Assembly: GCA_963701095.1 (NCBI GenBank)
Contig: OY969564.1
Location: forward strand, 736,001 to 800,000
Direction of reading: 5' to 3'
Source of the DNA: an uncultured Methanoregulaceae archaeon
GTDB taxonomy: Archaea; Halobacteriota; Methanomicrobia; Methanomicrobiales; Methanospirillaceae
Length of the DNA: 64,000 bases
Positions within the stretch are counted from its first letter, which is position 1. Every line of letters starts with the position of its first letter. A program made the position numbers and the translations under genes. Shown one piece after another: positions 16,843-64,000 of the stretch. The notes below the pieces were generated by a model that saw only the letters and a program-made list of their open reading frames with translations, ran no database searches and was not told where the DNA came from.

Positions 16843-18467
16843 TTATACCCGGCACACTTTTTTTAAGCGTTCACCAAGCCACGGGACGAAATCCTTTTTC
16901 CTTGACATGACACCGGGCAGCCGGACGGGTAATGGCTCGCCAAAAATTTCCCGAAGGAGCAGAGGATCACCTACACCATAGAGGTCGCTAGCGTTTTCAA
17001 GAACATTGGTGAACAACGCAAGCGAAAAGGAGATACCTGCAGCAGACCGGGCTTGTTCCAGTGCCGCTGCAATTGCGTCATCCCGTGCGCGGTTCCAGGC
17101 AAAAGATGGAACCATGACCTGGGCGATTTGGACACTTTTTTCCGAAAGCGTAAAAAGTTTTGAGTCCCGGGAAAGAAGGACGTCAAGGGGTACACCAGAC
17201 AGGTCCATGCCCTGTTCAAGCAGGGAAACGCCCAATTTCTCCGGGTCTTCACCGACAATCGACGCAAGATATTTTACCGCTTTTTTATCCTGGTGGGTTG
17301 TTGTTGACATCCGTAGCGACAGGGTATCGGAAAGGATACCACAGAGGAGAACACCCGCGATCTCCCGGGATGGGACAAGGCCGGCTTCCAGGAATTTCAT
17401 GGCAATAATGGTGGAAGTTGCGCCTACCGGATCGTTAAAAAACCGGATGGGCCGCAGCGTCGTGATCGCTCCCAGCCGGTGGTGGTCAATGATCTCCACA
17501 ACGTCAGCTTCTTCGATACCGGGGACTGCTTGGGAAGCTTCGTTGTGGTCGAGAAGAATAACCGGGCGGCGGACATTATCAAGTAACGTCGTCCGTGTCA
17601 GGATACCCATGAGTTTTCCCTGGCCCGATACAACACATGCTGCCCGGAACATCGAGCCGGAAACGACCTGCCGGGCGCGGGCAATAGTTTCGGTGCATGC
17701 AAGGACCGGGACATTGGTTTCCATCACTTCCCGGGCGGGGAGCGAGAGATTGATCATTTTTCCTACACCGAATGCATCCAGGTGCGTGGAAAGAACCGAA
17801 ACCCCCCGCTGCTGTGCAGCCCCGATAACCCGGTTCCCTACCGGCGCACCTTCAGCGATGATTAGAGCTGCAATCCCGGCAGAGACAAGAGCGAGTTGGG
17901 CCGGTTCGTTGTCGCCGACAACCGCGATATCTTTTTCCGTCATTTTTGCGAGGGTGACGTGCAGGGCATCGATAGCAATATAGACCCGTCCTTCAAGGAT
18001 CGGATGAGATTGTACAATGATGTGGGCACAAAGAACCGGGCAAACGTTTCTATGGGCACAGGGGTGACCGAGAGTGCGGCAAGGTGAAGGGTCCCGATAT
18101 AGGCATTAGCAAGCGCATGTTCGCCAATCATGCCGGCGGGTTTGCCTTCCGGATCCGTAATAACGACATTCCGGATCCCCTCTTTTGCCATAAGGGCAGC
18201 GACATCGACGGTGGGAATATCCTCGGGAAGGGCAAAGACCTGTTTATAGCTGATATCGGCAAGTGTCGGTTCTACTGACGGGATATAAACAGGTGCAGGC
18301 ATACTGTACCGGTCGAGCATAAACCGGGATTCACCGTTGATCTCCCCGCACCGTGCCGGGACGTACCGGCCGGGTTCAGACCGGTTTTTAAAATCCGCGT
18401 ACCCTAGAACGCTTGCGATGCTGTCGGTATCAGGCTGCCGGTGGCCGATGCAATAGATCTGGTTCAT
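16843..18467 (-). pseudogene. ppaC: Mn-dependent inorganic pyrophosphatase with CBS-DRTGG, frameshifted near 17950-18040
   Basis: GHRQPDTDS, LLDHNE, IIDHH, ILSDTL, SRKKD across two ORFs. Confidence 0.8.
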
Positions 18468-18665
18468 AGTACCTCAAAGAAGAAGAACAGCTGTTGCTGC
18501 AATACGTGCGCCGTCCGGGTTCATAAGCTCTGGGCTTGAGATTTCGTGCTGTCACCTGCCAAATCCTTTTCATGTGCCCCTTCTAACCGGATCATTACGT
18601 GTGTACCTCTATAATTGCCAAATTAACACAAGGTGACAACCGCATTTTAAAAAGGGAGATCTGAT

Positions 18666-19652
18666 ATGACCGTAGCAATTCACGCCGCTGACCTTACCCG
18701 GCGCTTCGGCGATCTCGTAGCCGTAGACCATATCAGTTTTGATATAGAACAGGGCGAGATATTCGGTCTTCTGGGCCCAAACGGCGCCGGAAAGACCACC
18801 ACCCTTTCGATGCTCTCGACGATGCTCGAACCCACTTCCGGTACTGCAACGGTTATGGGAATTGACGTAACCAAAGACCAGGACGGTGTCCGTAAAGCCA
18901 TCGGGATCGTCTTCCAGGACCAGAGCCTCGACGAAGAGCTTACCGCATGGGAGAATATGGATTTCCATGGCCGGCTCTACCGGATCCCAAAAGCCACCCG
19001 GGAACAGCGAATCGATGAGCTCCTCAACCTGGTCGAACTTTTCGACAGAAGGAACGATATTGTCAAGACATTCTCCGGCGGAATGCGGAGGCGCCTTGAG
19101 ATCGCCAGAGGCCTTTTACACCACCCGGCTGTCCTTTTCCTCGACGAACCCACGCTGGGTCTCGATCCCCAGACCAGAAACCACCTCTGGAAATATATTG
19201 AGGATCTTGCACAGGAGAAAAATATCACCATAATCCTGACCACGCATTATATGGAAGAGGCTGACCGGCTGTGCAACCGGATTGCGATCATCGATCACGG
19301 GAAAATCATTGCCCTTGACACACCTGTCAGGCTCAAGGATTCCATCGGCGGTGACGTAGTGACCATTAAATCACCGGATACGGAAAAGACAGCCGCCGTG
19401 TTTGCCGTTCCCTGGATCAACCGGATCGAAACCCATGATGACGAAGTGATCCTTACGTTGCAGAATGCTGAGCAGCGCTTGAGCATGATTGTGACCCTGC
19501 TCAACGATGAAAAGATTCCCATCACGTCTATTTCCGTCCATAAACCTACTCTCGAGGATGTCTTCCTTTCGTTTACCGGTAAAACCATCCGGGAGCAGGA
19601 TATAAGCAGAAAAGACGCTATGCGGATGCATTTCCGGATGATGAGGCACTGA
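18666..19652 (+). CDS. ABC-2 exporter ATP-binding subunit (DrrA-like)
   Basis: GPNGAGKT, FSGGM, LDEPT. Confidence 0.92.
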   Translation: MTVAIHAADLTRRFGDLVAVDHISFDIEQGEIFGLLGPNGAGKTTTLSMLSTMLEPTSGTATVMGIDVTKDQDGVRKAIGIVFQDQSLDEELTAWENMDFHGRLYRIPKATREQRIDELLNLVELFDRRNDIVKTFSGGMRRRLEIARGLLHHPAVLFLDEPTLGLDPQTRNHLWKYIEDLAQEKNITIILTTHYMEEADRLCNRIAIIDHGKIIALDTPVRLKDSIGGDVVTIKSPDTEKTAAVFAVPWINRIETHDDEVILTLQNAEQRLSMIVTLLNDEKIPITSISVHKPTLEDVFLSFTGKTIREQDISRKDAMRMHFRMMRH

Positions 19653-50228: not shown

Positions 50229-50230
50229 TT

Positions 50231-50311
50231 ACTTTCACCCCCCGTGTGGCCGGATCCTTATCCTCCTCAGTGCAGCTGGGATCCGGTGCTATGCTAATCA
50301 AGATCAGAAAG
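50231..50311 (+). repeat. Palindromic repeat element copy 3 (diverged loop, conserved arms)
   Basis: ggCCGGATCCttatcctcctcagtgcagctgGGATCCGGtgctATG. Confidence 0.85.
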
Positions 50312-50605: not shown

Positions 50606-50652
50606 AGCCTAAGGCGAGATTTGAACTCGCGACTTCCTCCTTACCAAAGAGG
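50606..50652 (-). other. att site: 3' half of tRNA-Thr(GGT)
   Basis: Reverse complement CCTCT-TTGGTAA-GGAGG AAGTC GCGAG-TTCAAAT-CTCGC CTTAGGC T gives anticodon arm, T arm and acceptor 3' strand; no D arm or 5' acceptor strand. Confidence 0.85.
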
Positions 50653-50707
50653 CATTTAGTTAGAGTTCATCCTAACATTTTTTATAGCCAAAAGTAGACT
50701 TTCTTTC

Positions 50708-51850
50708 ATGAAAGTGACCAAATCTTCCGGCAAACATCTCATTTATTTAGACTCACAGGAAATTTCTCACGCCGAAAGAGACATTATCAAAGGATTCATC
50801 GAACAACGGAATGCAATCAAGCCTACGAGCTTCAGGACCAAAGGAAAACAGGCTTATGAAAGTGTATGGATCTGCAAGATTCTTCGGGAGAACAAATCGT
50901 CGCTTGACGCCTGTACAGTTCATGATCTTCTGAAAGTAGCCGGGAATGCTGGATCGGGAGCGTTCACCAAAAACAGCCGGCAGACCAAGATCATGACGCT
51001 AAAAACCCTATCCCAATACATCCACCGGTTCCATCATCCCATAAACAATCTCGATCTACTTACCCATGATGTTAAAGCCGGTGCTGCAGAGTGCTATACC
51101 AAAAAAACACTTTCCATGAATGAGTGGAAACGGTTAATCAACACCCCCATGCCAGCCCGGGACAGAGCAATCATCGCTATGCTCTATGATGGCTATCACA
51201 GGCCAAAAGAGATCCTCTTGTTGAATTGGTCTGACCTTCACATCAATTCAGACGGGGTCGTTGAATATGAGATACGGTTTAAAACCGAGATCCCTCGCAC
51301 AATCGTACAAAAACCATGGACTACCCAAATCCTGAAAACATGGGCCCGCGAAACCGGCGCGAAAATCGGGGAGACAAATAGCCCCATATTCCCTGCTCCA
51401 GACGGCGGTCATTACGTGACAATTAATGTATTAGCTGATGTTTTTGATGATCTTAAGAAAAAGACCGGTTTTACTCATCTAATGCCATCTGTATTGAGGA
51501 ATTCGGCCATGAAGCACGATGCTGATAACGGCATGCCCGTATCCTATATCTGCTTGAGGGCTTGGGGTGTTACCTACAATAAAATGATCAACATCTACAT
51601 GAAGCCGGATAGTGCAAAAATACAGGGAGACCAACACCGGGAACGAGGAATAGAGGATACTGCTCCGATACTGGATGAAGATAGTGCAAAGCTCACCAAG
51701 GAGATCGAGATCCTGAAACAGGAAAGATCCGATGTTTTAGGGGTTGTGTCAGAACTGCAACAGGAAATGAGCCTCATTAAAAAAGTGTTGGAAGAAGTGA
51801 CTGCAAAACAAAAATCAGGGTCCCAAGGAAATCCGATTCAGACTTCTTGA
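50708..51850 (+). CDS. Tyrosine recombinase/integrase
   Basis: RDRAIIAMLYDGYHRPKEI, KT, PSVLRNS, WG, INIY; 55 bp from att. Confidence 0.85.
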   Translation: MKVTKSSGKHLIYLDSQEISHAERDIIKGFIEQRNAIKPTSFRTKGKQAYESVWICKILRENKSSLDACTVHDLLKVAGNAGSGAFTKNSRQTKIMTLKTLSQYIHRFHHPINNLDLLTHDVKAGAAECYTKKTLSMNEWKRLINTPMPARDRAIIAMLYDGYHRPKEILLLNWSDLHINSDGVVEYEIRFKTEIPRTIVQKPWTTQILKTWARETGAKIGETNSPIFPAPDGGHYVTINVLADVFDDLKKKTGFTHLMPSVLRNSAMKHDADNGMPVSYICLRAWGVTYNKMINIYMKPDSAKIQGDQHRERGIEDTAPILDEDSAKLTKEIEILKQERSDVLGVVSELQQEMSLIKKVLEEVTAKQKSGSQGNPIQTS

Positions 51851-52022
51851 TGGAATAAAATCATTTACTCAAAAAAATTGATGAAATATCGACGGATAGT
51901 TTCAAAAAATGAAACTTTTGTTAATACTTATAATGATAGCAAACCGATACTCCCATTCCATCTATAGTAAAAAACGTCTATAAATGGAAAAATCGCAAAA
52001 GTGCTTGTGAAAGAGGAGAAAA

Positions 52023-52358
52023 TTACTTTGAAACCGCGACCTCTTTCGTGCATTTCAGAACATTTTGGTATTTCTTGTCATTGGAGATGATCGTATCCAG
52101 CAACTCTTTCATCCTGTCCTTTTCCTTTGCAATCTGACTCAAAGGCTTAAGGCATACGGAACAATAATTCGCCTTTTGATCATTCAATGTGGAACATTTC
52201 GGACAAGTGATAGCCGAGGTATAGAATTCACACGCGTTCACGATCTGCGTGGTCCTGTCTGTCTTCATTTCCCATCGCTTATTTTCGATTTTATCGGCTA
52301 ATATGGCATCCATCTTTACCGTCACAGACTTCTCATTTTCATGTTTCTTAACTCGCAT
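52023..52358 (-). CDS. RHH + zinc-ribbon regulator (repressor candidate)
   Basis: SVTVKMD..RTTQIVNAC; CPKC..NYCSVC. Confidence 0.65.
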   Translation of the reverse strand: MRVKKHENEKSVTVKMDAILADKIENKRWEMKTDRTTQIVNACEFYTSAITCPKCSTLNDQKANYCSVCLKPLSQIAKEKDRMKELLDTIISNDKKYQNVLKCTKEVAVSK

Positions 52359-52443
52359 TGGTATTACCGTATTACAGTAAGACTACAATAGTATATTATA
52401 CTTACTGATTCAACCTGCAATTGTAACGCTAAAGGATGATTAC

Positions 52444-52593
52444 ATGGAACAAGAGCTTGTTTCACTGACGGTAAAGGTCCCAAAAGGGATGCTGACCAAG
52501 ATTGACAGGACCTGGAGAATACAGAGTGAATTTCACGACAGATCCGATTATGTGCGGCACGTACTCCGTAATGCAATCGAGGGTGCTCCATGA
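52444..52593 (+). CDS. 49-aa CopG-like RHH protein (not in ORF track)
   Basis: MEQELVSLTVKVPKGMLTKIDRTWRIQSEFHDRSDYVRHVLRNAIEGAP. Confidence 0.8.
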   Translation: MEQELVSLTVKVPKGMLTKIDRTWRIQSEFHDRSDYVRHVLRNAIEGAP

Positions 52594-52754
52594 CGAACGA
52601 GGAACCTATGATGGTAACGCAACGGCAGATTGACCGGATCAAATCATACGGTATCCCGGGCGCCGATGATGCACTGAAGGCCCTCATGAAACGTGGGGAA
52701 ATAGTACTTATCAAAGAAAACGGTGGCCAACGTGAACGCACGTTTACCGCTTAA
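52590..52754 (+). CDS. 54-aa hypothetical protein (not in ORF track)
   Basis: ATGA overlap with RHH gene; MTNEEPMMVTQRQIDRIK..ALMKRGEIVLIKE. Confidence 0.6.
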   Translation: MTNEEPMMVTQRQIDRIKSYGIPGADDALKALMKRGEIVLIKENGGQRERTFTA

Positions 52755-53199
52755 GAAAACCAGTGGCGCCCCAGTCCTCAGGCCGGTAAGCACGGGAACG
52801 GGGAACGCCAGTACCCAATCGGAACCGCAGAAGAAAAAGATTGGTGATGCTTGCACGCAGGGCATGTGCCCGGATTGTGGCAGCCCGCTCCGGTTTGGCA
52901 GCCGGGGAAGTGAGAATGACTATTACTGGTGCTCAAATGATGCCTGCCCGGGATTCCAGGGACCGTACCTGTTTCCACTCTATTACGTGATGCAGATACC
53001 CGATTGTCTCCCTGGAGTCATTGATAACGATTCAATTATCGCTGAACTCAAAGAAGGACACGCGATCCAGTCTCTAGCGCTCCGGTGTCCCTGCGCAAGT
53101 GATACAAACAGTATGCCCGGACTACCGGACCTGCAATGTCCCTATTGTGATGGCGACGGTAAACTCTCGTACACGCTGGAGGAGGTCGAGTTCCTGTGA
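52723..53199 (+). CDS. Zinc-finger protein
   Basis: CPDC..CSNDAC, CPC..CPYCDGDG. Confidence 0.65.
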   Translation: MANVNARLPLKKTSGAPVLRPVSTGTGNASTQSEPQKKKIGDACTQGMCPDCGSPLRFGSRGSENDYYWCSNDACPGFQGPYLFPLYYVMQIPDCLPGVIDNDSIIAELKEGHAIQSLALRCPCASDTNSMPGLPDLQCPYCDGDGKLSYTLEEVEFL

Positions 53200-53465
53200 A
53201 GTCCGTTTCTCTTGCCCCGGAAGATTCACTCCATATAATCGCGGTTTTTGGTGATCTGGTTGTTGCAGGATATTTCGAACAAGGCGTTTGGCATGACGTT
53301 ACCTTCACGAAATACTTACAGATCTGCGTAGAATCCAACACTCCACCGGAATACCTCAAGCCGGTAAAAGGGTTTTCCGGGATCCGGTTTATCGTGCCAG
53401 CCAAAGATAAGGGGGAGTTTCTGGCGACCCTGGCCATCCCGGTGTTCAATGGGGGGCGACCATGA
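53196..53465 (+). CDS. Hypothetical protein
   Basis: 4-nt overlaps at both ends. Confidence 0.6.
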   Translation: MKSVSLAPEDSLHIIAVFGDLVVAGYFEQGVWHDVTFTKYLQICVESNTPPEYLKPVKGFSGIRFIVPAKDKGEFLATLAIPVFNGGRP

Positions 53466-54306
53466 CCGAGGCCCTCACTACCCTTTCAAAGATTTTTGAG
53501 GGAAAAGAGATTCGCGTAATCGAGAAAAATGGGGAGGTATGGCTCAGGCTTGATGATCTCGCAGGTGCATGGGGGATTGATCGGACAACCCCCCAGAAGA
53601 TTATCTCACGCAATGAGGAGGTTTTTGAGGGGCTACATTTGTCTGTAGCCGTCGGGGATGTTACGTCACCCGACGTGTGGAATTGCGTGAATGAGCGGGG
53701 TCTCTACCTTATTATGGGGAAAATATCAGCTTCAAGACTCAAAAACAAGGAGTCCCGTGCCGCCATCATTCGCTTCCAACGCTGGGTACCTGAGCTGATC
53801 CAGCAGTACCGGAAAAAGGAAATCGTGCAGGCCAAACAACCGTCTCTTGATGCGGAACTCACCGAAGCGATCCATATCGCCGAGGTGTGTAAAAAATCTC
53901 CCGATCCATTTCTCTCAGCTGTTCTCGAAAAATACGGGAAAAAGCATCTCGCCGTGAAACTCGAGACCCGGCTCTTGCGGTCGTTCATGGTGAACCCGGC
54001 TGGTTCAACGTTTCCCAGCTGGTAGCGATGTGCAATGACCCACTCCTGAATGCAGAACGGCTGAATTATTACCTGTGGAACAATCCCAAAGATCCACAGC
54101 GCCGGCCGTACCAGTACCGGGATATGAATAAACTCTGGCGGTTGACATTACTTGGCCGGGAGCATGGCGAGGAATATCTCTATACCACCCCCTCAAAGCA
54201 CCAGGAGATCAGGATCCGGTGGCGGGAATCAATCCTGTATGCAAGCGGGCTCAAGCAGCAGATAGCGAACGATCAATTGGCATTACAGGGGAAAGCGGGG
54301 GCGTGA
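53462..54306 (+). pseudogene. BRO-N antirepressor-like protein, frameshift near 53970
   Basis: FEGKEIRVIEKNGEVWL, VNERGLY, RFQRWV; shifted frame (HGEPGWFNVSQL) runs into ORF 54028-54306. Confidence 0.7.
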
Positions 54307-54370
54307 CTGGCATGGGAAAACACAAGCGATTCATAGCGAAGGCTCTACCGGCCCTGTTCCGAGGTGCAAC

Positions 54371-55036
54371 ATGAGAGCACAGTATTGCCGGGAGCATATT
54401 GACAAAGTAGCTGAAGAGTGCGGCATCAGCGAAGAGTACGTTTCGGATGTAAAGAAAGCCGCCAGGTTTTGTTCAGTGGCAGGAGAATTCTCCGACTGCG
54501 CTACCAGCGCAATTCTGGCTTTGATTAACGTTTCGGATGATTTGGTGAGAGATAAAGCCATATCGTCCGTGTCAAATTCGTTGAAATCATCAAAACACCC
54601 TCTGACCGGGCAGTTCCTGAAAGAGCGAAAATTGCCAGAAAAGACTATCAAAAAGGTGATACGGAATATCGAGCGGGAAGTCCGGGGCGAGCTGACAAAG
54701 ACCTACGAGAAAGAGCGGCAACCTGCACCGGAAACACCAAAAGAACCTGAAAAAGAGCATATTGTTGAGGCACAGACCGGGTTCACGACCGCGGCAAGAA
54801 TGAATGACGGTCTTGGTAATTCCTTCACCCGGGGAAATCCGCTCAAAATCACCCCGGTTCAACTGACCAAACAACAGGCAGAATCCGTGATAACTTCCGT
54901 TGTCCGGGGTCACTGGACGGATAAAGATCGAGCCGCCCTTGACGATCTCCGCAAGAACGGCGAGCTTGGCGAGACAGATCACGATATCCTTTACAATGCA
55001 ATGTGGGCTTGCCATGATCGGTTGGAGGGTGCGTGA
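54371..55036 (+). CDS. Hypothetical protein (possible N-terminal HTH)
   Basis: GAGGTG RBS; DKVAEECGISEEYVS. Confidence 0.65.
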   Translation: MRAQYCREHIDKVAEECGISEEYVSDVKKAARFCSVAGEFSDCATSAILALINVSDDLVRDKAISSVSNSLKSSKHPLTGQFLKERKLPEKTIKKVIRNIEREVRGELTKTYEKERQPAPETPKEPEKEHIVEAQTGFTTAARMNDGLGNSFTRGNPLKITPVQLTKQQAESVITSVVRGHWTDKDRAALDDLRKNGELGETDHDILYNAMWACHDRLEGA

Positions 55037-55179
55037 TGGCCGAACACAAAAAAGGTCACAAGGGTACGGTATCGACCCTCCGCTACAACCGGCAACGGCG
55101 GAGGATAAAGAAAGGACTGGAAAAACCGATTGAGTATACTACGACAGTAGAAGAAGCAGCTCTCGCGTTGGTGATGTGA
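55036..55179 (+). CDS. 47-aa basic protein (not in ORF track)
   Basis: TGATG overlap; MAEHKKGHKGTVSTLRYNRQRRRIKKG. Confidence 0.5.
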   Translation: MAEHKKGHKGTVSTLRYNRQRRRIKKGLEKPIEYTTTVEEAALALVM

Positions 55180-55300
55180 TTTTGTCGCATCTACCTACCT
55201 ACCTCAGCGTACCGTCCGGTTATGTTATGTTATGTAACATAATCCGAAGTTCGGATTTTGGCATTAAGTCAATTTCAGAGTTCCACTCGCTACTAAGGGG

Positions 55301-55768
55301 TTGGGATCTTTGAGGAAGAACCACACCGTCAGTCTCGAAGAGGAAGATGTGCAACTTGCGCAAGCACTCGGTCTGACCAATCTTTCCGATTATGTCCGGA
55401 GTGCAATCTCGTATTTCATTTCTGGTTCAGATCGGGAACTCACCCCCTCCGAGATCCGCGAACTCTCAAAGAAACTCGCTCTGGAAAAGCGAGCAGAACT
55501 CCAAAAACAACAGAAAATCACCGGCCAGTCCGATGAAGAAAAAAAGAAGATCGAAGATCTCCGGGCAAAGCGGCTTGCAAAGATTATCGAGTCGGTGAAA
55601 ATTGAATCTTCTAGGGTCGGGTTCGACCGATTCAAACGATACCTGGACGACCCTCATGGTGACTATGTTGCGATCCAAGACGACATTATAGCAGCAGTCT
55701 CGAATAGCGCCGGTTTCCCGGTGGATCTCGCAGATGTAATCACGGCGTTCAGGCAGGTGTCGGCATGA
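55301..55768 (+). CDS. RHH-like N-terminus + coiled-coil protein
   Basis: HTVSLEEE..NLSDYVRSAI. Confidence 0.65.
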   Translation: MGSLRKNHTVSLEEEDVQLAQALGLTNLSDYVRSAISYFISGSDRELTPSEIRELSKKLALEKRAELQKQQKITGQSDEEKKKIEDLRAKRLAKIIESVKIESSRVGFDRFKRYLDDPHGDYVAIQDDIIAAVSNSAGFPVDLADVITAFRQVSA

Positions 55769-56202
55769 ATTCCAACGGTGGTCCCCGGATTAAGAACGCA
55801 AAGAAAACCGTTGTCGATAAAATCACTTTTGCGTCACGGATGGAAGCCCGGAGATATATTGAGCTCAAGAAGCTGAAAGCGGCCGGGGTCGTGACCAGGA
55901 TCGAGTGCCAACCGGCATTTGTGCTGCAACCTGCGTACCGGAAATGCTGCGACGTGAAATATGATGCCGAAATGACGCCGTTTCTCTATAAAAAAGGTAT
56001 CTGTGAGGTATGCGGGAAGAAGATGTCCGTGGTCAAGGCGATCCGGTATGTTGCCGATTTCCGTGTCACGTATGCAGATGGTCATTTTGAGGTAGAGGAA
56101 GTGAAAGGGTATGCCCAGGAAGTTTGGAAAATTAAGAAGAAAATTTTCGAATTCCGGTACCCGGAGATCACGCTTAAGGTCGTAAAGAAGGTGAGACGAT
56201 AA
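55765..56202 (+). CDS. DUF1064 family PD-(D/E)XK nuclease with Cys insertion
   Basis: KKTVVDKITFASRMEARRY, QPAFVL, YVADF, EEVKG. Confidence 0.85.
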   Translation: MNSNGGPRIKNAKKTVVDKITFASRMEARRYIELKKLKAAGVVTRIECQPAFVLQPAYRKCCDVKYDAEMTPFLYKKGICEVCGKKMSVVKAIRYVADFRVTYADGHFEVEEVKGYAQEVWKIKKKIFEFRYPEITLKVVKKVRR

Positions 56203-56338
56203 CTCATATTTGTACTAAATGCGAACTCCCGGTAACAGTTCCCGTACCGGAGACATGGTCGCGAAAATATCCGGAACTAGCGGGGTTGTGCATCTATTGT
56301 TTTGCGGAATGGCAACGGGAGCATTTAGGGGATGGAAA

Positions 56339-56548
56339 ATGAAGGACGGGGTTATACAAATACACGAAACAACGCTCCCCTATCTGGATTTTATTGAAGA
56401 GATCCTTCTTGAGGAGCTTATCAAGCAAGGCCGGGCGGAAATCATACGCAATGGGGTTACGCATGAAAAAAATTCATCCTTTGTATCCCCTCTGTCCTCT
56501 GTGGGATACCGGGGTGTCCTTGTTAATAGGGAGCGAGTAAATCCATGA
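56339..56548 (+). CDS. Small hypothetical protein
   Basis: MKDGVIQI..LEELIKQGRAEII; ATGA overlap with next gene. Confidence 0.5.
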   Translation: MKDGVIQIHETTLPYLDFIEEILLEELIKQGRAEIIRNGVTHEKNSSFVSPLSSVGYRGVLVNRERVNP

Positions 56549-56772
56549 ACAAGAAACGGGAACCGTTCTGGGGCACAACCTCTCATGCCACTCTCATCCA
56601 TTTGTTTGTATGGGACTCGGACCGCCAGAAAATGGTTCAAGCTTGTAGATTACACCAGTTGAGTCGTATATTACCAAAGCGAGTGTGGCCGGTAGAGGGG
56701 GTTTCGATCGATCATCCGGCAATTTGCCCAAGCTGCGTTAGGCGGGCTAATGTTTATCTAAACAAGCTCTAA
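56545..56772 (+). CDS. Small putative Zn-binding protein
   Basis: H..C..CPSC. Confidence 0.55.
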   Translation: MNKKREPFWGTTSHATLIHLFVWDSDRQKMVQACRLHQLSRILPKRVWPVEGVSIDHPAICPSCVRRANVYLNKL

Positions 56773-56950
56773 AATCTAGAAAGCAGTTTTGTGGGAACGC
56801 ATTGTTTTAAAAATTCTTATAATTCTTTTTCTCTTTTGACAAGTCAACAGAACTATTTAACGATTGATATAAATGTTTAAATAGGCCAATATTGGCATAA
56901 AGACAAAAAGTCTCAAAATGAGACTTACGATTTAAATCGAAAATGGTGAA

Positions 56951-58054
56951 TTGGTGATTGGCATGGAGAAAGAATTATGCGATGACAATACTTTCGAAAA
57001 AATTGAATCGGAAGAAAAGGATGAAGAAGAAGATACCGCAAGATATGAAATAATATCATATGGTGCGGATTTCACTCTTTCCGTTTACTATACTAAAATT
57101 GAAAGTGAAGAGATTCTTGTTCCAAAATTTCAAAGGCGATATGTTTGGAGTATTAAACAAGCAAGTCGGTTAATTGAGAGTTTTTTATTAGGTCTTCCTG
57201 TGCCAGGAATTTTTTTATCTAAAGAAAAGAATAGTGGAAATCTTTTAGTTATAGATGGCCAACAACGTCTCGTCACCTGCCAAAGTTTTCGTGATGGAAT
57301 CTTCCCAAATACAATTAAACCTTTTTTATTAGAAGAAGTTAAGTCTCAGTGGGTGGGAAAAAAATATACAGATTTAGATCCTGTTGATAGAAAGCGATTT
57401 GACGATTCTGTTCTCCGTGCAACAATAATTCAACAGATTAAGCCTCAAGATCAAAAAAGCATTTATCATATTTTCCAAAGACTAAATACTGGAGGAACTC
57501 CCCTATCTAACCAAGAAATTCGTAATTGCTTATACCAAGGAAAATTCAATATTTTGCTCAATGAAATGAATAATCACCCAATATGGAGAACTCTATATCG
57601 CAGTAAAGAATTTAATAAGAGGAAGAAAGATGAAGAATTAATTCTCCGTTTTTTTGCGTTATATTATAATTTTGAAAAATATACTAAACCGATGAATGAG
57701 TTCTTATCGACATATATGGAAGATACACAAATGGAGTATCCTCGTGATGAAAATCAAAAATTATTAAGTGAAATGAAGGAAATTTTCATCAGTACTATTA
57801 GTATAATAAATACAAAAATCGGCCCTCAGGCCTTCCGTCCTAAGGGCAACATCAATACTGCCGCTTTTGATTCAATAATGTATGTCGTTGCTAAAAATAA
57901 AGAGAATTTAAATGAAAAGTTGGATAAATGTGTGATTGAGTTATTTAAAGATCAAGAATACATCAAAGCCATCACAGTTGGAACAACTGATCCTGAATCA
58001 ATTAAAAAAAGAATTGAGGTAACAACAAAATATTTTGTGAAAAAAAATGAATAG
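56951..58054 (+). CDS. DUF262 (GmrS/ParB-like) domain protein
   Basis: PKFQRRYVW, LIES, VIDGQQR, IFQRLNTGG; likely start 56963. Confidence 0.9.
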   Translation: MVIGMEKELCDDNTFEKIESEEKDEEEDTARYEIISYGADFTLSVYYTKIESEEILVPKFQRRYVWSIKQASRLIESFLLGLPVPGIFLSKEKNSGNLLVIDGQQRLVTCQSFRDGIFPNTIKPFLLEEVKSQWVGKKYTDLDPVDRKRFDDSVLRATIIQQIKPQDQKSIYHIFQRLNTGGTPLSNQEIRNCLYQGKFNILLNEMNNHPIWRTLYRSKEFNKRKKDEELILRFFALYYNFEKYTKPMNEFLSTYMEDTQMEYPRDENQKLLSEMKEIFISTISIINTKIGPQAFRPKGNINTAAFDSIMYVVAKNKENLNEKLDKCVIELFKDQEYIKAITVGTTDPESIKKRIEVTTKYFVKKNE

Positions 58055-58068
58055 ACTTATATGCTCAA

Positions 58069-58515
58069 GTGAAAATTGATTTTTTAGATTTCGTTTTCAA
58101 TGAGATTGATAAAAAAATAACTGATTCTCAAGTGCAAAGCTATCTCACTCAATATTTATCGGTATTAATTTGTGGGGTCTATGAAGATATTATCGAGAAT
58201 TTGCTTTTTGAATTTGTTAAAAAAGATCCTATATCAGTAGAGACATTGAATTTTATTTTTAATTCTATCGATAAAGGATTTCGGAATCCGAATTCAGGAA
58301 ATATTAAGAGCATGATGAGGAATTTTAATCCTCCTTGGGTAGATCAATTGAATCTAGTTGTCACAAGATCAGAATGGGATGCGTTGGAAAGTGTTGTAGC
58401 GAATAAAAATAAAATTGCACATGGAGAGTCATCGACTATAACATATGTTTTAATCAAACAATACTATACAGAATCCAAGAAAGTAATAATCGCTCTGGAT
58501 TCAATAATTGTGTAA
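58069..58515 (+). CDS. HEPN domain protein (RiboL-PSP/MAE_28990-like)
   Basis: CGVYE..E helix, RNP, KNKIAHG (R/K-x4-H). Confidence 0.8.
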   Translation: MKIDFLDFVFNEIDKKITDSQVQSYLTQYLSVLICGVYEDIIENLLFEFVKKDPISVETLNFIFNSIDKGFRNPNSGNIKSMMRNFNPPWVDQLNLVVTRSEWDALESVVANKNKIAHGESSTITYVLIKQYYTESKKVIIALDSIIV

Positions 58516-58596
58516 CATCAATTAGATATTCTTAAATTATTACAGTCTTTTTCCCATCCGAATCTCAAATCGGTGACCTGCCGCACTTAATACATA

Positions 58597-59286
58597 TCAC
58601 TGACCACCATTTTTAATTTCTATGACTTCCTTTTTTGGAAGTATTTCTATTACATAAGTAGAATTTTTTCTCTTCTGACCATCTTCACTAATAGTATTTT
58701 TAGCTGATTCACATGCTATTGCTGCTTTTTCGAGTAAATCCTTGCATGTATCATTAGCATTGTAGATTGTAACTCCACAACAGATTGTAATTCCACTTAA
58801 TACCATTTTTTTAGGCTTATCTATAATAAAGTTCCATTTTTCAACATTTTCCCTAAGACGTTCTGCAAATTGTCGTCCATGTTCGACATCGATACCTAAA
58901 TGTGACACTACTAAAAATTCATCACCGCCACAATAGAATATATAATCTTTTTCACGAATATTGAACACACTTTTCATTTGTCCAATAATCTGATCTCCAA
59001 CTTCATGATTTGAATCATAAATTTGTTTAAAATTATCTATATCAATGAGTATTACAACGAATGGTTGATTTGTTATTTGCGATTCTTGAATCTGATTATT
59101 AATTACCTCAAGAATTTGTTCTTTACTTAAGAGACCAGTATGGTTATCAATTTTATACGAATCTTCATTTATTACCCCATCTATTTTTTCATCAGTTTTT
59201 CGAGCTTGAATTAACGTGATAATCGCTATAATGACCGCTATAATAATTCCAATTATGGCCCAATAAGCGGTCTCAGAAATTTCCAT
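58597..59286 (-). CDS. Single-TM GGDEF domain protein
   Basis: N-terminal TM, DNHTGLL, IDIDNFK, HEVGD, REKD (I-site), GGDEF, TICCGV. Confidence 0.88.
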   Translation of the reverse strand: MEISETAYWAIIGIIIAVIIAIITLIQARKTDEKIDGVINEDSYKIDNHTGLLSKEQILEVINNQIQESQITNQPFVVILIDIDNFKQIYDSNHEVGDQIIGQMKSVFNIREKDYIFYCGGDEFLVVSHLGIDVEHGRQFAERLRENVEKWNFIIDKPKKMVLSGITICCGVTIYNANDTCKDLLEKAAIACESAKNTISEDGQKRKNSTYVIEILPKKEVIEIKNGGQ

Positions 59287-59468
59287 TAATATATTAATTT
59301 TTACTGCACAAAATGATAAATATCTATCTCTTATAAAATTTTTCTGTCAAAATATATTAATTAAAACCAGTTCAATTCCTTCAAATCGTGCTTGAAAAAA
59401 TCTGTTTATCTGAGTCAATATCAGACGCTCTTTTGTAATGTGCCAGCATCGGCACGGAGTATTTTCTC

Positions 59469-59978
59469 ATGACAAACCCGATTGCAACGCCCACAGGGCT
59501 CTATAAGGCCGGCCCGGCCGGTGTCGGCGGCGAATACCAGACGCTCGACTCCATCAACCAGCACATCTTCCTCCTGAACCAGGAACACGTCGTTTACGGC
59601 CTCCAGTTTGCAGCGCCAGCCTCGGTGCCAACAAACAACGAAGGCGTCAAAGACAGTGTGATCATCGATATTGTCCTGGACGGCAACGACGCCCACACCA
59701 TCCACGACCCGCACCAGACCTACGCCTTCCTCTACAGCACGGACTATCCCTCGCAACAGAACGGCACATGGTACGGCTTCTTCCGGGTACCCAACAACAA
59801 CCCGTCGCTGATAGCTCCCGGCCCGCACCAGGTCACCGTCAAGGTCGCACCCCGGGCACCCCCACTTGCCGGTACCTCTTCCGCAAACCAGATCCTGCCG
59901 CCCCGGAACTTCTCCCCGGCAGCCGGTGGCGTCAGCAAAACGTTCGTCTACTGGATCACGGACGGCCCCATCCAGTGA
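59469..59978 (+). CDS. Hypothetical beta-rich protein
   Basis: GC-rich ORF with consistent third-position bias. Confidence 0.65.
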   Translation: MTNPIATPTGLYKAGPAGVGGEYQTLDSINQHIFLLNQEHVVYGLQFAAPASVPTNNEGVKDSVIIDIVLDGNDAHTIHDPHQTYAFLYSTDYPSQQNGTWYGFFRVPNNNPSLIAPGPHQVTVKVAPRAPPLAGTSSANQILPPRNFSPAAGGVSKTFVYWITDGPIQ

Positions 59979-59984
59979 GCAAAA

Positions 59985-60704
59985 ATGTCCGTCCAAACAG
60001 ACCCGGACGAAGTCCCCCAGAACGACCCGAATGCCCGGGCCGGGTACACCTTCGACCCGTACGCCGCACCGTGCCAGCAGGGAAACATCATTTCCTTTAT
60101 CCCGTTCAGCTACCGGGACGACCACATCTACCAGGACGGTTTCGATGTCGGTTTCCGTGCCCTGTCCCCTGCCGATATCCAGAAATGCCCGCCGTTCTGG
60201 ACGGATAAACAGTACGTCTGGGAAGCAGGCCAGGACGCCGGGTTCAAAGCCGGGAGGCTCTCGGATGCCGACAAAGCCCGGATATCCGCACAACCCCCGG
60301 TACTCCTCACGGTAGACCCCCGTACCGGGTACAGCATCGACCCCTGGAGCGGCCCGGAATACCTCAAAGACACGCACGATCCCCGCATCCCCTACCACAC
60401 GAAACGGCAGCAGATGGTTGCCCTTCTCGCAGCCCAGGAAGGCGCCGCTGCTCCGGATCGGGAATCCATCCCGGCCTGTCCGCCACTGTTTTCCGATGTC
60501 GAACATTACTGGGACTCTGACGCGATTGCCGGGTATGAAGCCACGCACAGCAGCACCCTCCTTCGGATGAAGGGCTTTGTGATAAACGAGTTCCTGACGA
60601 AAGCCGGGACGGGTGACTGGATGAGTATCGCGCTTAAGATCCTGTTCGGTCCGGTGGTACTGTATAGCTTTTCGACGATTCTGCACTTTGTGAACATCGC
60701 ATAA
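59985..60704 (+). CDS. Hypothetical protein with hydrophobic C-terminus
   Basis: GC-rich ORF 6 nt after previous stop. Confidence 0.65.
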   Translation: MSVQTDPDEVPQNDPNARAGYTFDPYAAPCQQGNIISFIPFSYRDDHIYQDGFDVGFRALSPADIQKCPPFWTDKQYVWEAGQDAGFKAGRLSDADKARISAQPPVLLTVDPRTGYSIDPWSGPEYLKDTHDPRIPYHTKRQQMVALLAAQEGAAAPDRESIPACPPLFSDVEHYWDSDAIAGYEATHSSTLLRMKGFVINEFLTKAGTGDWMSIALKILFGPVVLYSFSTILHFVNIA

Positions 60705-60811
60705 TCAACTCTTTCGGGCCCGTGTTTCCCTGCCGTCTGGTCGTCCACTCCGGCACGGCAGGAAAGCTCTTCCACCTTCAGAGCGCGGTTCGATCCGCCC
60801 GGGCTCATTCC

Positions 60812-60961
60812 ATGAAAAAAATACCAGAAAGCGACTGGCAGCGAGAGATCCAGCAAGGGTGCATCGACGCCCGGCCCGTCCGGGGCGGTACCAACTGCCG
60901 GCACCCGGAGGGAACCGGCTATTGTTATTTCAAAAACTGCCCGAAGGTGAAAAACCCGTGA
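60812..60961 (+). CDS. 49-aa Cys-rich protein
   Basis: C..C..C..CP; GTGA overlap with ParB gene. Confidence 0.5.
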   Translation: MKKIPESDWQREIQQGCIDARPVRGGTNCRHPEGTGYCYFKNCPKVKNP

Positions 60962-61503
60962 GCGATATGGCATTTAAGAAAATCAACATCAGCGACCTCC
61001 ACGCAGCACCCTACAACCCGAGAAAAGACCTGCAACCGGACGATCCGGAATACCAGCAGATCAAGCGGTCGATTGAAGAGTTCGGATACGTGGATCCGGT
61101 GATCATCAACCGTGACCGGACGGTAATAGGCGGCCACCAGCGGCTCAAAGTGCTCCGGGAACTCGGCCAGGAAAAGATCGCAGTCGTGGAAATCAACCTG
61201 CCCAAAAACAAGGAAAAAGCCCTCAACGTCGCCCTCAACAAGATCAGCGGTTCCTGGGACAACGAGCGGCTCGCGGTCCTGCTCGGTGAACTGAATACCG
61301 AAGGGATGCTCGCGGTCACCGGTTTTGATGAAAAAGAATTCGAGAAGTTAACAGAGCAGCTGAAAAACGAGGGTGCAGCGAACGACATCCCCCTGAAATC
61401 AGCCTTTGAAGTTATCATCGAATGTCCCAACGAAAGCGAGCAGGAACGGACGTATAACGAGCTCATGGAGGCCGGGTATAAGTGCCGCGTTTTGACTTTA
61501 TAA
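60958..61503 (+). CDS. Phage-type ParB/Srx N-terminal domain protein
   Basis: YNPRKDL, SIEEFGYVDPVI, IGGHQRL, ALNKISG. Confidence 0.85.
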   Translation: MSDMAFKKINISDLHAAPYNPRKDLQPDDPEYQQIKRSIEEFGYVDPVIINRDRTVIGGHQRLKVLRELGQEKIAVVEINLPKNKEKALNVALNKISGSWDNERLAVLLGELNTEGMLAVTGFDEKEFEKLTEQLKNEGAANDIPLKSAFEVIIECPNESEQERTYNELMEAGYKCRVLTL

Positions 61504-62558
61504 AGGAAATCACGGCAGCCGACACGTTCAAAGTCGAACAGGTCAAGGGCGCTTTTGACCTCCAGACATCCACCATCCAGGAACATTTTACCGGCGATAT
61601 TGCTATTGAGGGGAAAGACTGGAACATCGGTTTAATTGTCGGCCGGAGCGGGACGGGTAAAACCACGATTGCGAAAGAAATCTTTGCCGCTGACTATATC
61701 GAGCCGCATACGTACGGAACATCTGCCATCGTGAACGAGATGCCGGACGGTATCTCCTATGCAGATATAACCAGAATGTTTACTGCTGTGGGTTTTTCCT
61801 CGCCGCCGTCGTGGCTGAAACCTTATTCTGTCCTCTCAAACGGGGAGAAGATGCGGGTTGACCTTGCCCGGGCTTTATTGGAAGACCGCGACGTGATCGT
61901 GTTTGATGAGTATACGTCAGTGGTCGACCGGGACGTTGCCAAAGTGTGTTCGCTCGCGGTGAACAAAGCGATCCGGAACCAGGGTAAGAAGTTCATCGCC
62001 GTTTCCTGCCACGATGATATTACCGCATGGCTGCAACCTGATTGGCTCTACGATACCAATCAGCAGACGTTTTCCTTTCGGTCCGGACAACGCCCTGAAA
62101 TCAAGGTTGACGTGTTCGACGCCCACCGGAACGCCGGACTTTGGAACGTTTTTGGGAAGTATCACTATCTGAATACGGGCATCAAGAGAGGCACCGATAT
62201 TTTCATTGGCTGTATCAATAACGCCCCGGTCGCCTTCTGTGCCGTCCGGCATTTCCCTCATCCCAAGAATCCCCGGATCAAGATGGTGCACCGGCTGGTT
62301 GTCCTGCCGGACTACCAGGGCATCGGTATCGGTACCCGGTTCCTGGGCTTTGTTGCTGAGTTGTACACTAAAAGGCAGTTTACCGTCCACCTCGTTACTT
62401 CTCAGGTGTCGCTCATCAATTCCCTCAAAAAACACGGCTGGCACTTGGTTCATTACGGCCATTTAGCGAAAGTGAAGGGCGGCATGGAGCACCTGAAAAA
62501 GACCAACAGTAACCGCAGGATTACCGCGTCGTTTAAGTATGCCGGGAGATCGGTGTGA
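61482..62558 (+). CDS. ABC ATPase-GNAT acetyltransferase fusion
   Basis: GRSGTGKT, LSNGE, IVFDE, SCH; RLVVLPDYQGIGIG. Confidence 0.88.
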   Translation: MPRFDFIKEITAADTFKVEQVKGAFDLQTSTIQEHFTGDIAIEGKDWNIGLIVGRSGTGKTTIAKEIFAADYIEPHTYGTSAIVNEMPDGISYADITRMFTAVGFSSPPSWLKPYSVLSNGEKMRVDLARALLEDRDVIVFDEYTSVVDRDVAKVCSLAVNKAIRNQGKKFIAVSCHDDITAWLQPDWLYDTNQQTFSFRSGQRPEIKVDVFDAHRNAGLWNVFGKYHYLNTGIKRGTDIFIGCINNAPVAFCAVRHFPHPKNPRIKMVHRLVVLPDYQGIGIGTRFLGFVAELYTKRQFTVHLVTSQVSLINSLKKHGWHLVHYGHLAKVKGGMEHLKKTNSNRRITASFKYAGRSV

Positions 62559-62874
62559 CCACAAAGAAATCTCCCACGGATATCAAAAAATATGGCCGGA
62601 AAAAGATACCGGTGCATGCTTGACGTTCATTTTCAAGAGCATGAGTAAAGAGATGGTCATCGCCGAAGCCGCCCGGGTCATGCTCGCCATTGAAAAGAAT
62701 ACCAGTTTGTCCCTTATCATCGAACCCTGCCCGGATTCGGATCGAGAAGGGTGGTGGCAGGTGCGGGAATGCCCGATATTTCCTATACCCCGGTACAAAT
62801 CCAAACCACACCGGAAAAGCGAGCGGAAGGTGTGGCGGGATGTGGGCCGGCCGAGACTTCGCCCGACCGTTTAA
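62539..62874 (+). CDS. Hypothetical protein
   Basis: Overlaps preceding stop, same strand. Confidence 0.5.
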   Translation: MPGDRCDHKEISHGYQKIWPEKDTGACLTFIFKSMSKEMVIAEAARVMLAIEKNTSLSLIIEPCPDSDREGWWQVRECPIFPIPRYKSKPHRKSERKVWRDVGRPRLRPTV

Positions 62875-63184
62875 AAAATAGGGGAATGAGCTCTTGCAGA
62901 AATCCTCAAAAAAGCACTATGCCTCCCTTATAATCTTCGATAAATACATCTCCCCATTTATTGAAGAAAAAAAGTTTACTTCCCGTTCTTCCGGTACAGG
63001 AAAATCGCACCGCCCAAGGGGATTCTGTCAAGTTGTCAGTAGGTCTGAAATTTTTTACTTCGATGAAAAGTCACAAGCTGCCGAAGACTTGACAGAACCC
63101 AATGTGTTAACAAATCATTAAAGAAAAGTGTCATATTCGATAGATATATATATAAATGACAAATATTAACGATAGCTGATTTTA

Positions 63185-64000
63185 ATGAGCGACAATGATA
63201 CTAATGGTGGATTAATTCCTCCCGGCAGCGTTGAAGGGAACGCAGTGCAAGCCCTGCTCAATATCCTGAACAGTGCCACTTCACCGGAAATCCTGCAAGC
63301 TCAGGCAATTATGCTGCGGCGATTGGCCCTGGATGGCGATGTGGTCGCCTCGCGCATTCCGGCTCCACTGAACATTACGGAGATCGGCGGTTACATCAAC
63401 TTGGTCACGACCTTGGGAATGAATGACACCCGCACGCAGATGATCGCCAGCGTTCTGGGTGTTGCCGGTCCGAGCCAAGCATTGGGCTGGCTGCCGTCCC
63501 AGCCGACTCTGAGCTGGATCTCTATGCCCAACGACCGCCCCAGTGGACCGCTCCAGGGGACTCTTCCGGTCTCCTTTAGCATCCGGAGCGATTTCGAGCC
63601 TTCGATCTCACTTGCGCTCCAGGGAATACATGACCGCGGTTGTGCATTACCAATTCTTGCACCCACGCCCGCCCTTCCACCCTCGGGCTCCCCGCCTCCC
63701 ACGGATTTGTTGCCCCTGATCGGGCGCTCGCTCATGCTGGCGCCAACTATGGCGCTGGTGAACCCGGATTCGGATCCCCTCGCAGTGGCCCAGCTTCCGG
63801 GAGGCATTTGGCAGGTGGTATGCCGATGTTTGAGTGCCGGCCCTATAGGAGTTAATCCGGCAAATTGGTCGGCACTCGTAGGCAACTCAACCTCCTGCAC
63901 GGTATCCCCAGCGCCTGCTACGGGACGGCAGTACGTTCCTGTCGCCCCAATCTTGGCCAGTGCGGGTTTCGTACCAGCTTCTGTTGGCTACCAGCCCAAA
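63185..64000 (+). CDS. Hypothetical protein, truncated by window end
   Basis: Open frame MSDNDTNGG..LRRLALDGDVVASRIPAPLNITEIGGYINL; TATA-like tract ~63146. Confidence 0.7.
   Translation, partial: MSDNDTNGGLIPPGSVEGNAVQALLNILNSATSPEILQAQAIMLRRLALDGDVVASRIPAPLNITEIGGYINLVTTLGMNDTRTQMIASVLGVAGPSQALGWLPSQPTLSWISMPNDRPSGPLQGTLPVSFSIRSDFEPSISLALQGIHDRGCALPILAPTPALPPSGSPPPTDLLPLIGRSLMLAPTMALVNPDSDPLAVAQLPGGIWQVVCRCLSAGPIGVNPANWSALVGNSTSCTVSPAPATGRQYVPVAPILASAGFVPASVGYQPK

Follow-up and report, generated by a model that had tools for sequence, protein, structure and literature searches.

An AT-rich cargo block of an archaeal provirus holds a predicted PD-T4-2-type DUF262-HEPN pair and a GGDEF gene that is probably separate cargo

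The DNA analyzed here (the window, 64,000 nucleotides in full) is taken from contig OY969564.1 (positions 736,001 to 800,000, forward strand; assembly GCA_963701095.1) of an uncultured Methanoregulaceae archaeon, and the subject of this study is an AT-rich block of three genes inside a provirus at window positions 56773..59420. Three open reading frames (ORFs) were found in the block at 56951-58054 (+), 58069-58515 (+) and 58597-59286 (-), and Pfam models placed them, all over the cut-off, in the families GmrSD_N/DUF262 (103 bits), RiboL-PSP-HEPN (52 bits) and GGDEF (74 bits). The HEPN and GGDEF genes are convergent, and their stop codons are separated by 81 bases. The GC content of the block is 0.304, compared with 0.479 in the left flank (50708-56772) and 0.550 in the right flank (59421-64000), and none of 991 equal-sized tiles of the genome (mean GC 0.481, standard deviation 0.037) was as AT-rich, with the reservation that the block edges were picked by eye, which favours a low value for this interval. 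The GC content, the ORFs and the Pfam matches bear out the initial annotation, in which an AT-rich three-gene block of a provirus was described with a DUF262-HEPN operon converging on a membrane GGDEF gene.

The DUF262 gene (56963..58054, +) encodes a ParB/Srx-fold nucleoside triphosphatase (NTPase) of 363 amino acids (aa) when read from its ATG, and matches in Pfam and PADLOC mark it as PD-T4-2A/NsnA-like. The DUF262 motifs QRRYVW (57), DGQQR (98) and FQRLN (171) are intact. The second gene (58047..58515, +) encodes a RiboL-PSP-HEPN protein of about 155 aa with the motif KNKIAH, whose ORF starts at GTG 58069 in the assembly. The frameshift responsible for this start probably reflects an error of the assembly, because the extra base at 58055 is missing from the short-read contigs of both run X1 (depth 6.3) and run X2 (depth 3.85), two runs of one study that possibly represent the source sample. 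Without the extra base, an ATG at 58047 opens the HEPN gene and overlaps the DUF262 stop codon, a layout that is also present in four relatives, and the two genes are therefore likely to be translationally coupled. A second single base, at the non-coding position 56911 upstream of DUF262, is missing from the X1 and X2 contigs as well, and a short-read contig across the whole GGDEF gene contains zero differences. Sequence comparison revealed that the upstream region (56839..56962, +) is shared with two relatives (L069 and L070) and includes a TATA-like box at approximately 56865-56875; this region likely holds the cassette's own promoter. A scan for sigma-70 promoters remained at chance level (14 versus 14.5), the sigma-70 consensus being unsuited to an archaeon.

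By its sequence, the gene pair is classed as an archaeal variant of the PD-T4-2 type. PD-T4-2, listed as 'DUF262, HEPN', is a validated anti-phage system of E. coli for which an H127A mutant of gene B was reported; its deletion from the native strain increased T4 plaquing, and the prototype is functional as a two-gene system (PMC9519451). The HEPN protein of PD-T4-2 belongs to PF18735 (PMC10952713). Both loci combine a DUF262 gene with a coupled downstream gene for a PF18735-type HEPN protein (375 and 167 aa in the prototype versus 363 and about 155 aa here), both retain the HEPN histidine, and both are cargo of an integrated element, as the prototype allele L247 adjoins integrase, Psu and ogr genes. 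PADLOC assigned the DUF262 protein to PD-T4-2_A with 185 bits over residues 15-361 of 363, and the A protein of the prototype allele shares 29% identity with it over 321 aa (E 2e-36). The similarity of the B proteins is remote. A pairwise comparison gave a weak match (E 2e-4), and a profile of 18 HEPN proteins from which the prototype B protein had been excluded matched it with 14.6 bits (E 9.5e-7), the best of 500 shuffled sequences reaching 7.6. Histidine H127 of the prototype, situated in RNAAAH rather than in KNKIAH, aligns with the histidine of the window protein, which is invariant in all 114 aligned HEPN proteins. A structure model of the window HEPN protein (predicted local distance difference test, pLDDT, 94.5) retrieved mostly HEPN proteins among its top matches, but with a Z score of only 7.9 and root-mean-square deviations of 3.1-4.1 over 114-123 aligned residues; the Pfam match favours a HEPN fold. 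While PD-T4-2 resides in an E. coli element, the pair in the window is carried by an archaeal tailed provirus.

Three observations speak against a plain PD-T4-2 assignment. The Menshen NsnA model scores higher than PD-T4-2_A on the DUF262 protein (240 versus 185 bits), the arginine of the HEPN Rx4H motif is replaced by a lysine that 15 of the 64 close relatives share but none of the 50 distant ones, and the HEPN protein is not matched by the PADLOC PD-T4-2_B model. Because the arginine and the PD-T4-2_B match both fail, the pair was filed as a variant and not as a strict member, and since the B model is unmatched, annotation tools would not call a system at this locus. The same model matched 6 of 14 related HEPN proteins that were scanned (E 1.7e-8 to 0.01). 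The PADLOC comparison proposed in the initial annotation consequently had a divided outcome, with PD-T4-2_A and NsnA matches for the DUF262 protein and none to PD-T4-2_B for its partner. The Menshen model is matched over its full length and shares the architecture of a ParB-DUF262 region followed by a C-terminal helical domain; Menshen requires an ABC ATPase and a third gene (PMC12065111), however, and neither NsnB nor NsnC lies next to the DUF262 gene, which is followed by the HEPN gene and the convergent GGDEF gene instead, so that this identity was rejected. GmrSD, BrxU and SspE were likewise rejected, as no DUF1524 HNH nuclease is fused or paired in the block; the corresponding Pfam model GmrSD_C was unmatched in all three proteins. 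A Ribo L-PSP-HEPN 'operon with ParB', listed as bacterial, was predicted in 2013 by Anantharaman et al. (PMC3710099); it has the same HEPN family and partner, the window pair differing in being archaeal and in carrying K for R. A literature search returned no instance of 'KxxxxH'. A further DUF262-HEPN pair follows immediately after the replication initiator on an IncX1 plasmid from E. coli (L237:2420-4060; NZ_CP102858.1), and numerous plasmids of E. coli and Salmonella carry DUF262 matches similar to that one.

The lysine and the assembled frameshift could also be taken to mean that the pair is decayed or non-defensive, with an inactive HEPN protein and a block that is either hitch-hiking DNA or an addiction module stabilizing the provirus. 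This is considered the least probable of the readings weighed here and would be a considerable surprise, given that the 15 relatives with the lysine form have intact frames, that the histidine is invariant, that the DUF262 motifs are intact, and that the extra base is missing from two short-read assemblies.

To obtain an overview of the gene neighbourhood, 175 DUF262 loci were compiled, consisting of all 15 matches in 400 other genomes of the order, the best 80 of at least 518 metagenome matches and the best 80 of 110 viral matches. These loci supplied the seed sequences for the HEPN profile, and as default filters missed the prototype B protein, the HEPN counts are lower bounds. A HEPN gene directly follows DUF262 in at least 119 of the 175 loci, among them 106 of the 148 loci with at least 600 nucleotides of downstream DNA (54 of 58 for those from metagenomes), and Pfam confirmed the HEPN assignment in all 14 genes that were sampled. 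A profile search detected no GGDEF gene beside DUF262 in any of the 175 loci. This includes the 78 loci in which DUF262 and HEPN are followed by at least 800 nucleotides past the HEPN gene (68 clusters at 90% identity, 51 at 70%). The GGDEF profiles were sensitive enough to find the domain in 48 of 49 control loci, the single miss (L046) being an out-of-frame pattern match. Of the relatives with sequence downstream, the nearest one (L070) shares 81.7% nucleotide identity over 56839-58511 and is unrelated from the HEPN stop codon onwards, and the locus of the prototype allele has no GGDEF gene. Viewed from the GGDEF side, the only two readable loci of the clade to which the window protein belongs (L065 and L068) contain neither a DUF262 nor a HEPN gene, and neither gene turned up in a further 30 GGDEF loci, whose flanks are short. 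A literature search returned no report of DUF262, HEPN and GGDEF together.

The conserved unit is the DUF262-HEPN pair, without GGDEF. The initial annotation had put forward a candidate new three-gene system in which nucleotide signalling might control an NTPase-RNase pair, and this proposal is not upheld: the pair matches the described PD-T4-2, no GGDEF gene adjoins its 175 DUF262 relatives, and the co-occurrence of the three families, which had been suggested as a check, was seen in 0 of 175 loci from the DUF262 side and in 0 of 2, a thin sample, from the GGDEF side. The alternative mentioned in the same annotation, two independent cargoes, is the better reading. The block accordingly appears, with good probability, to combine two likely independent cargoes, namely a PD-T4-2-type pair that likely protects the lysogen and a solitary GGDEF protein that is likely impaired. 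Some points weigh against this view. Just one relative above 80% identity has DNA beyond the HEPN gene, as the other close one (L069, 88% protein identity) ends inside it; the neighbourhood of the GGDEF clade rests on two loci; and the GC contents of the three genes are alike (0.30-0.32), so that they may have arrived as a single block.

The block lies in a tailed archaeal provirus of approximately 62 kb, which reaches from a left attachment repeat (50606..50654), a copy of the 3' end of tRNA-Thr, to C1:848808. The 49-bp repeat matches the end of the tRNA gene (C1:848760-848808; tRNA-Thr GGT, C1:848760-848833) at 45 of 49 positions. A tyrosine integrase gene identified by profile matches (50708..51850, +) stands beside the repeat, its top NCBIfam match being the archaeal XerA model, under the cut-off, and genes for terminase, head/capsid, tail, tape-measure and distal-tail proteins were found beyond the window. 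The block (56773..59420) fills a variable slot between the region of a DUF1064 gene and a conserved gene at 59469. The host genome holds two sister proviruses. One of them (C1, approximately 100-108 kb) is 93% identical to window positions 54360-56206 and 79% identical to 59456-62611, and has a gene for a 427-aa DUF4238 protein in its slot. DUF4238 is presumably an anti-phage family; PADLOC gave no match for this gene. The slot of the other sister (C1, approximately 2.07 Mb) is filled by an inverted PDC-M19-like cassette, and in the related IMG/VR contig L229 a low-GC, membrane-type protein of 294 aa (L229:3411-4292) is encoded at this site. The latter protein has no Pfam or PADLOC match and is a candidate defence gene. 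The GC contents of these slots are 0.31 (DUF4238), 0.36 (PDC-M19-like) and 0.31 (L229 protein). The slot is a hotspot for exchangeable defence-type cargo in this provirus family, and the differing contents of the sister slots agree with the original suggestion of defence-type cargo in a provirus hotspot. As the cargo differs in all four related elements, the adjacency of the three genes carries little weight. Sequencing runs X5, X6, X7 and X9, from four studies, covered the flanks and left 56814-59068 without cover. An X7 contig joining 56658 to 59371 was discounted, having 28 letters on its short side, and loose ends at 56193/59456 in X1-X3 were not counted as independent evidence because they match a sister provirus of the same genome.

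The GGDEF gene (58597..59286, -) encodes a protein of 229 aa that is predicted to be held in the membrane by one helix (hydrophobic stretch at residues 8-28 approximately, hydropathy 2.9; model helix 5-36). It is the only GGDEF gene found in the host genome, and of 401 genomes from the order, 11 contain a member of the family. The structure model (pLDDT 88) resembles solved diguanylate cyclases (E 5.7e-14 to SiaD), and features of class I cyclases are kept, including the GGDEF fold, the GGDEF motif, the metal aspartate (D327), K332, K442 and D344 (D98 in the window protein). The equivalent of the inhibitory I-site RxxD is intact as well. Two positions deviate: the equivalent of PleD N335 is Y90 and that of R366 is Y118, the residues N and R each being present in 20 of 21 aligned clade members. 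N335 binds guanine and was reported to be essential (PMC7288161). Because this guanine-binding asparagine is lost, the protein is likely to be a poor or dead cyclase, and an impaired or decaying enzyme is the simplest, and a likely, reading of its sequence. The enzyme may alternatively have an altered base specificity, because the D344 position is variable within the clade (N in 10, D in 9, S in 1 and T in 1 of 21 members). A serine at this position is a mark of enzymes that make cyclic GMP-AMP (PMC7288161); the window protein has D98 in place of this Hypr serine, and S or T was found in 2 of the 21 clade members.

The best relative of the window protein is 49% identical. In a quick tree, it falls into a clade of 35 rows (support in the Shimodaira-Hasegawa-like approximate likelihood ratio test, SH-aLRT, 98) of mostly short transmembrane-coiled-coil-GGDEF proteins and therein into a subclade of 10 rows (SH-aLRT 97) that includes two HD-CE fusions, HD-CE-GGDEF-TIR (P0059) and AAA_31-HD-CE-GGDEF (P0065), with degenerate GGDEF domains (GEDKF). 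The HD-CE domain of P0065 is 52-65% identical to that of HD-CE-NB-ARC-TPR proteins encoded by four genomes from the same phylum, and because these relatives carry NB-ARC-TPR after the same domain, the C-terminal module following HD-CE appears to be interchangeable. This similarity suggests that the subclade may be archaeal and conflict-related. A search of 400 other genomes of the order, 400 genomes of the phylum and 177 genomes of family f7 did not find the clade, and the gene context of the clade is therefore nearly absent. A degenerate clade pattern hit 26 genome loci, 2 of them true members, and 0 loci in viral contigs, where scans with the single protein and with a GGDEF alignment returned no relatives. 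A search for longer proteins of the subclade yielded 32 generic multi-domain GGDEF proteins (at most 117 bits) and missed P0059 and P0065, which makes it uninformative, and the ESM Atlas returned generic GGDEF clusters only. Archaeal GGDEF genes have been described as sporadic, some of them short and some non-canonical (Sidorov et al. 2026, PMC13725321), and the main text of that paper, as available, contains no mention of 'virus', 'Methanoregula' or 'Methanomicrob'. Compared with the archaeal proteins described there, the one in the window is provirus-borne, belongs to a distinct clade and lacks an N335 equivalent. Literature listings produced nothing about this clade and nothing about archaeal viruses with a GGDEF gene.

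An alternative reading is that the GGDEF gene is a one-gene conflict module of a mobile transmembrane-coiled-coil-GGDEF clade, independent of the pair, that makes or binds a cyclic dinucleotide of changed specificity and serves as decoy, sensor or membrane effector. The HD-CE fusions with their link to NB-ARC-TPR proteins, the variation at the base-selecting D344 and the otherwise defence-type contents of the slot would fit such a module, as would the clade genes in L065 and L068, which are solitary and of lower GC content than their contigs (0.34 versus 0.41 and 0.39 versus 0.49). However, the window copy has lost two residues that 20 of 21 members keep, no effector gene adjoins it, the neighbours in L065 are of housekeeping type, the fused GGDEF domains are degenerate, and the clade was not found in the genomes searched, leaving its context nearly empty. 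On balance, such a module is unlikely. In its fullest form, for which the odds are just as poor, an undescribed mobile membrane-GGDEF clade would have spread as a conflict module into methanogens and the viruses that infect them, and here it would provide the virus with a cyclic-dinucleotide decoy or sensor of changed base preference, possibly tuning the adjacent lysine-type HEPN toxin. If true, a GGDEF conflict module would be acting in a domain of life without detected cyclic di-GMP.

A combination of all three genes into one system resembling Panoptes is far less probable again. In Panoptes (OptSE), a palm-fold nucleotide synthase occurs near defence genes and provides a model for a synthase restraining a toxin (PMC12657218); applied to the block, the GGDEF product would restrain or trigger the DUF262-HEPN pair. 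The three genes are adjacent, equal in GC content and housed in one slot, mCpol synthases, structural kin of GGDEF domains, are sometimes coupled to HEPN RNases (PMC12657218), and no other use of cyclic dinucleotides was found in the host, whose genome (86% complete) gave no match to the EAL, PilZ or HD_5 families. A search for STING gave no signal in any control genome and is therefore uninformative. In contrast to the OptS mCpol protein, which shares an operon with a nucleotide-binding effector, the window protein has a true GGDEF fold and is encoded convergently, and its gene has neither an effector of this kind nor a conserved linkage. The GGDEF and DUF262-HEPN genes have separate upstream regions, a Pfam scan of the DUF262 and HEPN proteins returned none of the known nucleotide sensors, for example CARF or SAVED, and the cyclase looks impaired. 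The absence of GGDEF from all 78 informative DUF262-HEPN loci and a prototype that functions with two genes (PMC9519451), in a locus lacking GGDEF, argue in the same direction.

With the block read as two separate cargoes, a mechanism can be proposed for the pair. A dimer of the DUF262 NTPase would bind a HEPN dimer and keep it inactive. With its ParB-type and C-terminal DNA-binding domains, the DUF262 protein would sense the DNA of an invading virus, a change of its nucleotide state would free the HEPN RNase, and the freed enzyme would cut RNA and halt the infected cell. In other DUF262 systems, DUF262 senses foreign DNA, and binding or hydrolysis of nucleoside triphosphates activates the partner nuclease (PMC10952713, PMC12065111). 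A predicted 2:2 complex of the two proteins scored 0.42 versus 0.07 for the best control, with at least 86% of contacts agreeing across runs and a partner pLDDT of at least 81. Among 157 solved and 215 mismatched pairs, 116 and 2, respectively, came up to the mark applied to such complexes; only 18 of these solved pairs, but both mismatches, did so with scores up to 0.60, so that the model lends weak support to binding. The GGDEF protein would be anchored by its single helix, would likely produce little or no cyclic di-GMP and probably has no role in the pair, and it may still bind a nucleotide at its intact inhibitory site. Counting against this scheme, the sensing and release steps are borrowed from other DUF262 systems and not from PD-T4-2, for which a literature search listed no mechanism study; RNA cutting by a lysine-type HEPN protein is a predicted activity, and defence is the likely, predicted function of the pair.

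Several other features were observed in the same region. Immediately ahead of the terminase region, window positions 60859-62558 contain a ParB-like gene and an ABC ATPase-GNAT fusion, both of which are conserved across the four related proviruses. An 80-bp element at 50230-50310 has seven further copies in the genome, one of which (C1:846428) lies near the far end of the provirus. Elsewhere in the provirus, an AT-rich locus encodes a reverse transcriptase and a nitrilase (L002:13829-16907; C1:813826-816907) with a PADLOC match to RT_UG5-nitrilase, where two overlapping ORFs correspond to consecutive parts of one model and may reflect an assembly frameshift. Three AT-rich genes with GC contents of 0.24-0.31 are found within the structural region (L003:9541-11698; C1:829541-831698), one with a weak match to class II tRNA synthetases and two without Pfam or PADLOC match. 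PKD-repeat, PEGA and BacA/UppP genes are located between the head and tail genes (L003:2301-6870; C1:822301-826870), and a weak DarG-like gene, two unknown genes and a low-GC gene resembling a proteasome subunit were noted at L002:11242-13685 and 18168-18884.

The novelty of the results is modest and consists of a copy of the pair in an archaeal provirus, a HEPN subclade of the lysine type and a GGDEF clade that is rare. A false lead is removed, as the block is not a new nucleotide-signalling system. PD-T4-2-type pairs, as recognized by sequence, are extended to archaeal proviruses, together with a lysine-type HEPN subclade that is missed by the PADLOC B model. A cargo slot is defined in this provirus family, whose contents can be mined for defence genes, and the small GGDEF clade, with its varied base-selecting residues and conflict-type fusions, is the lead that remains.

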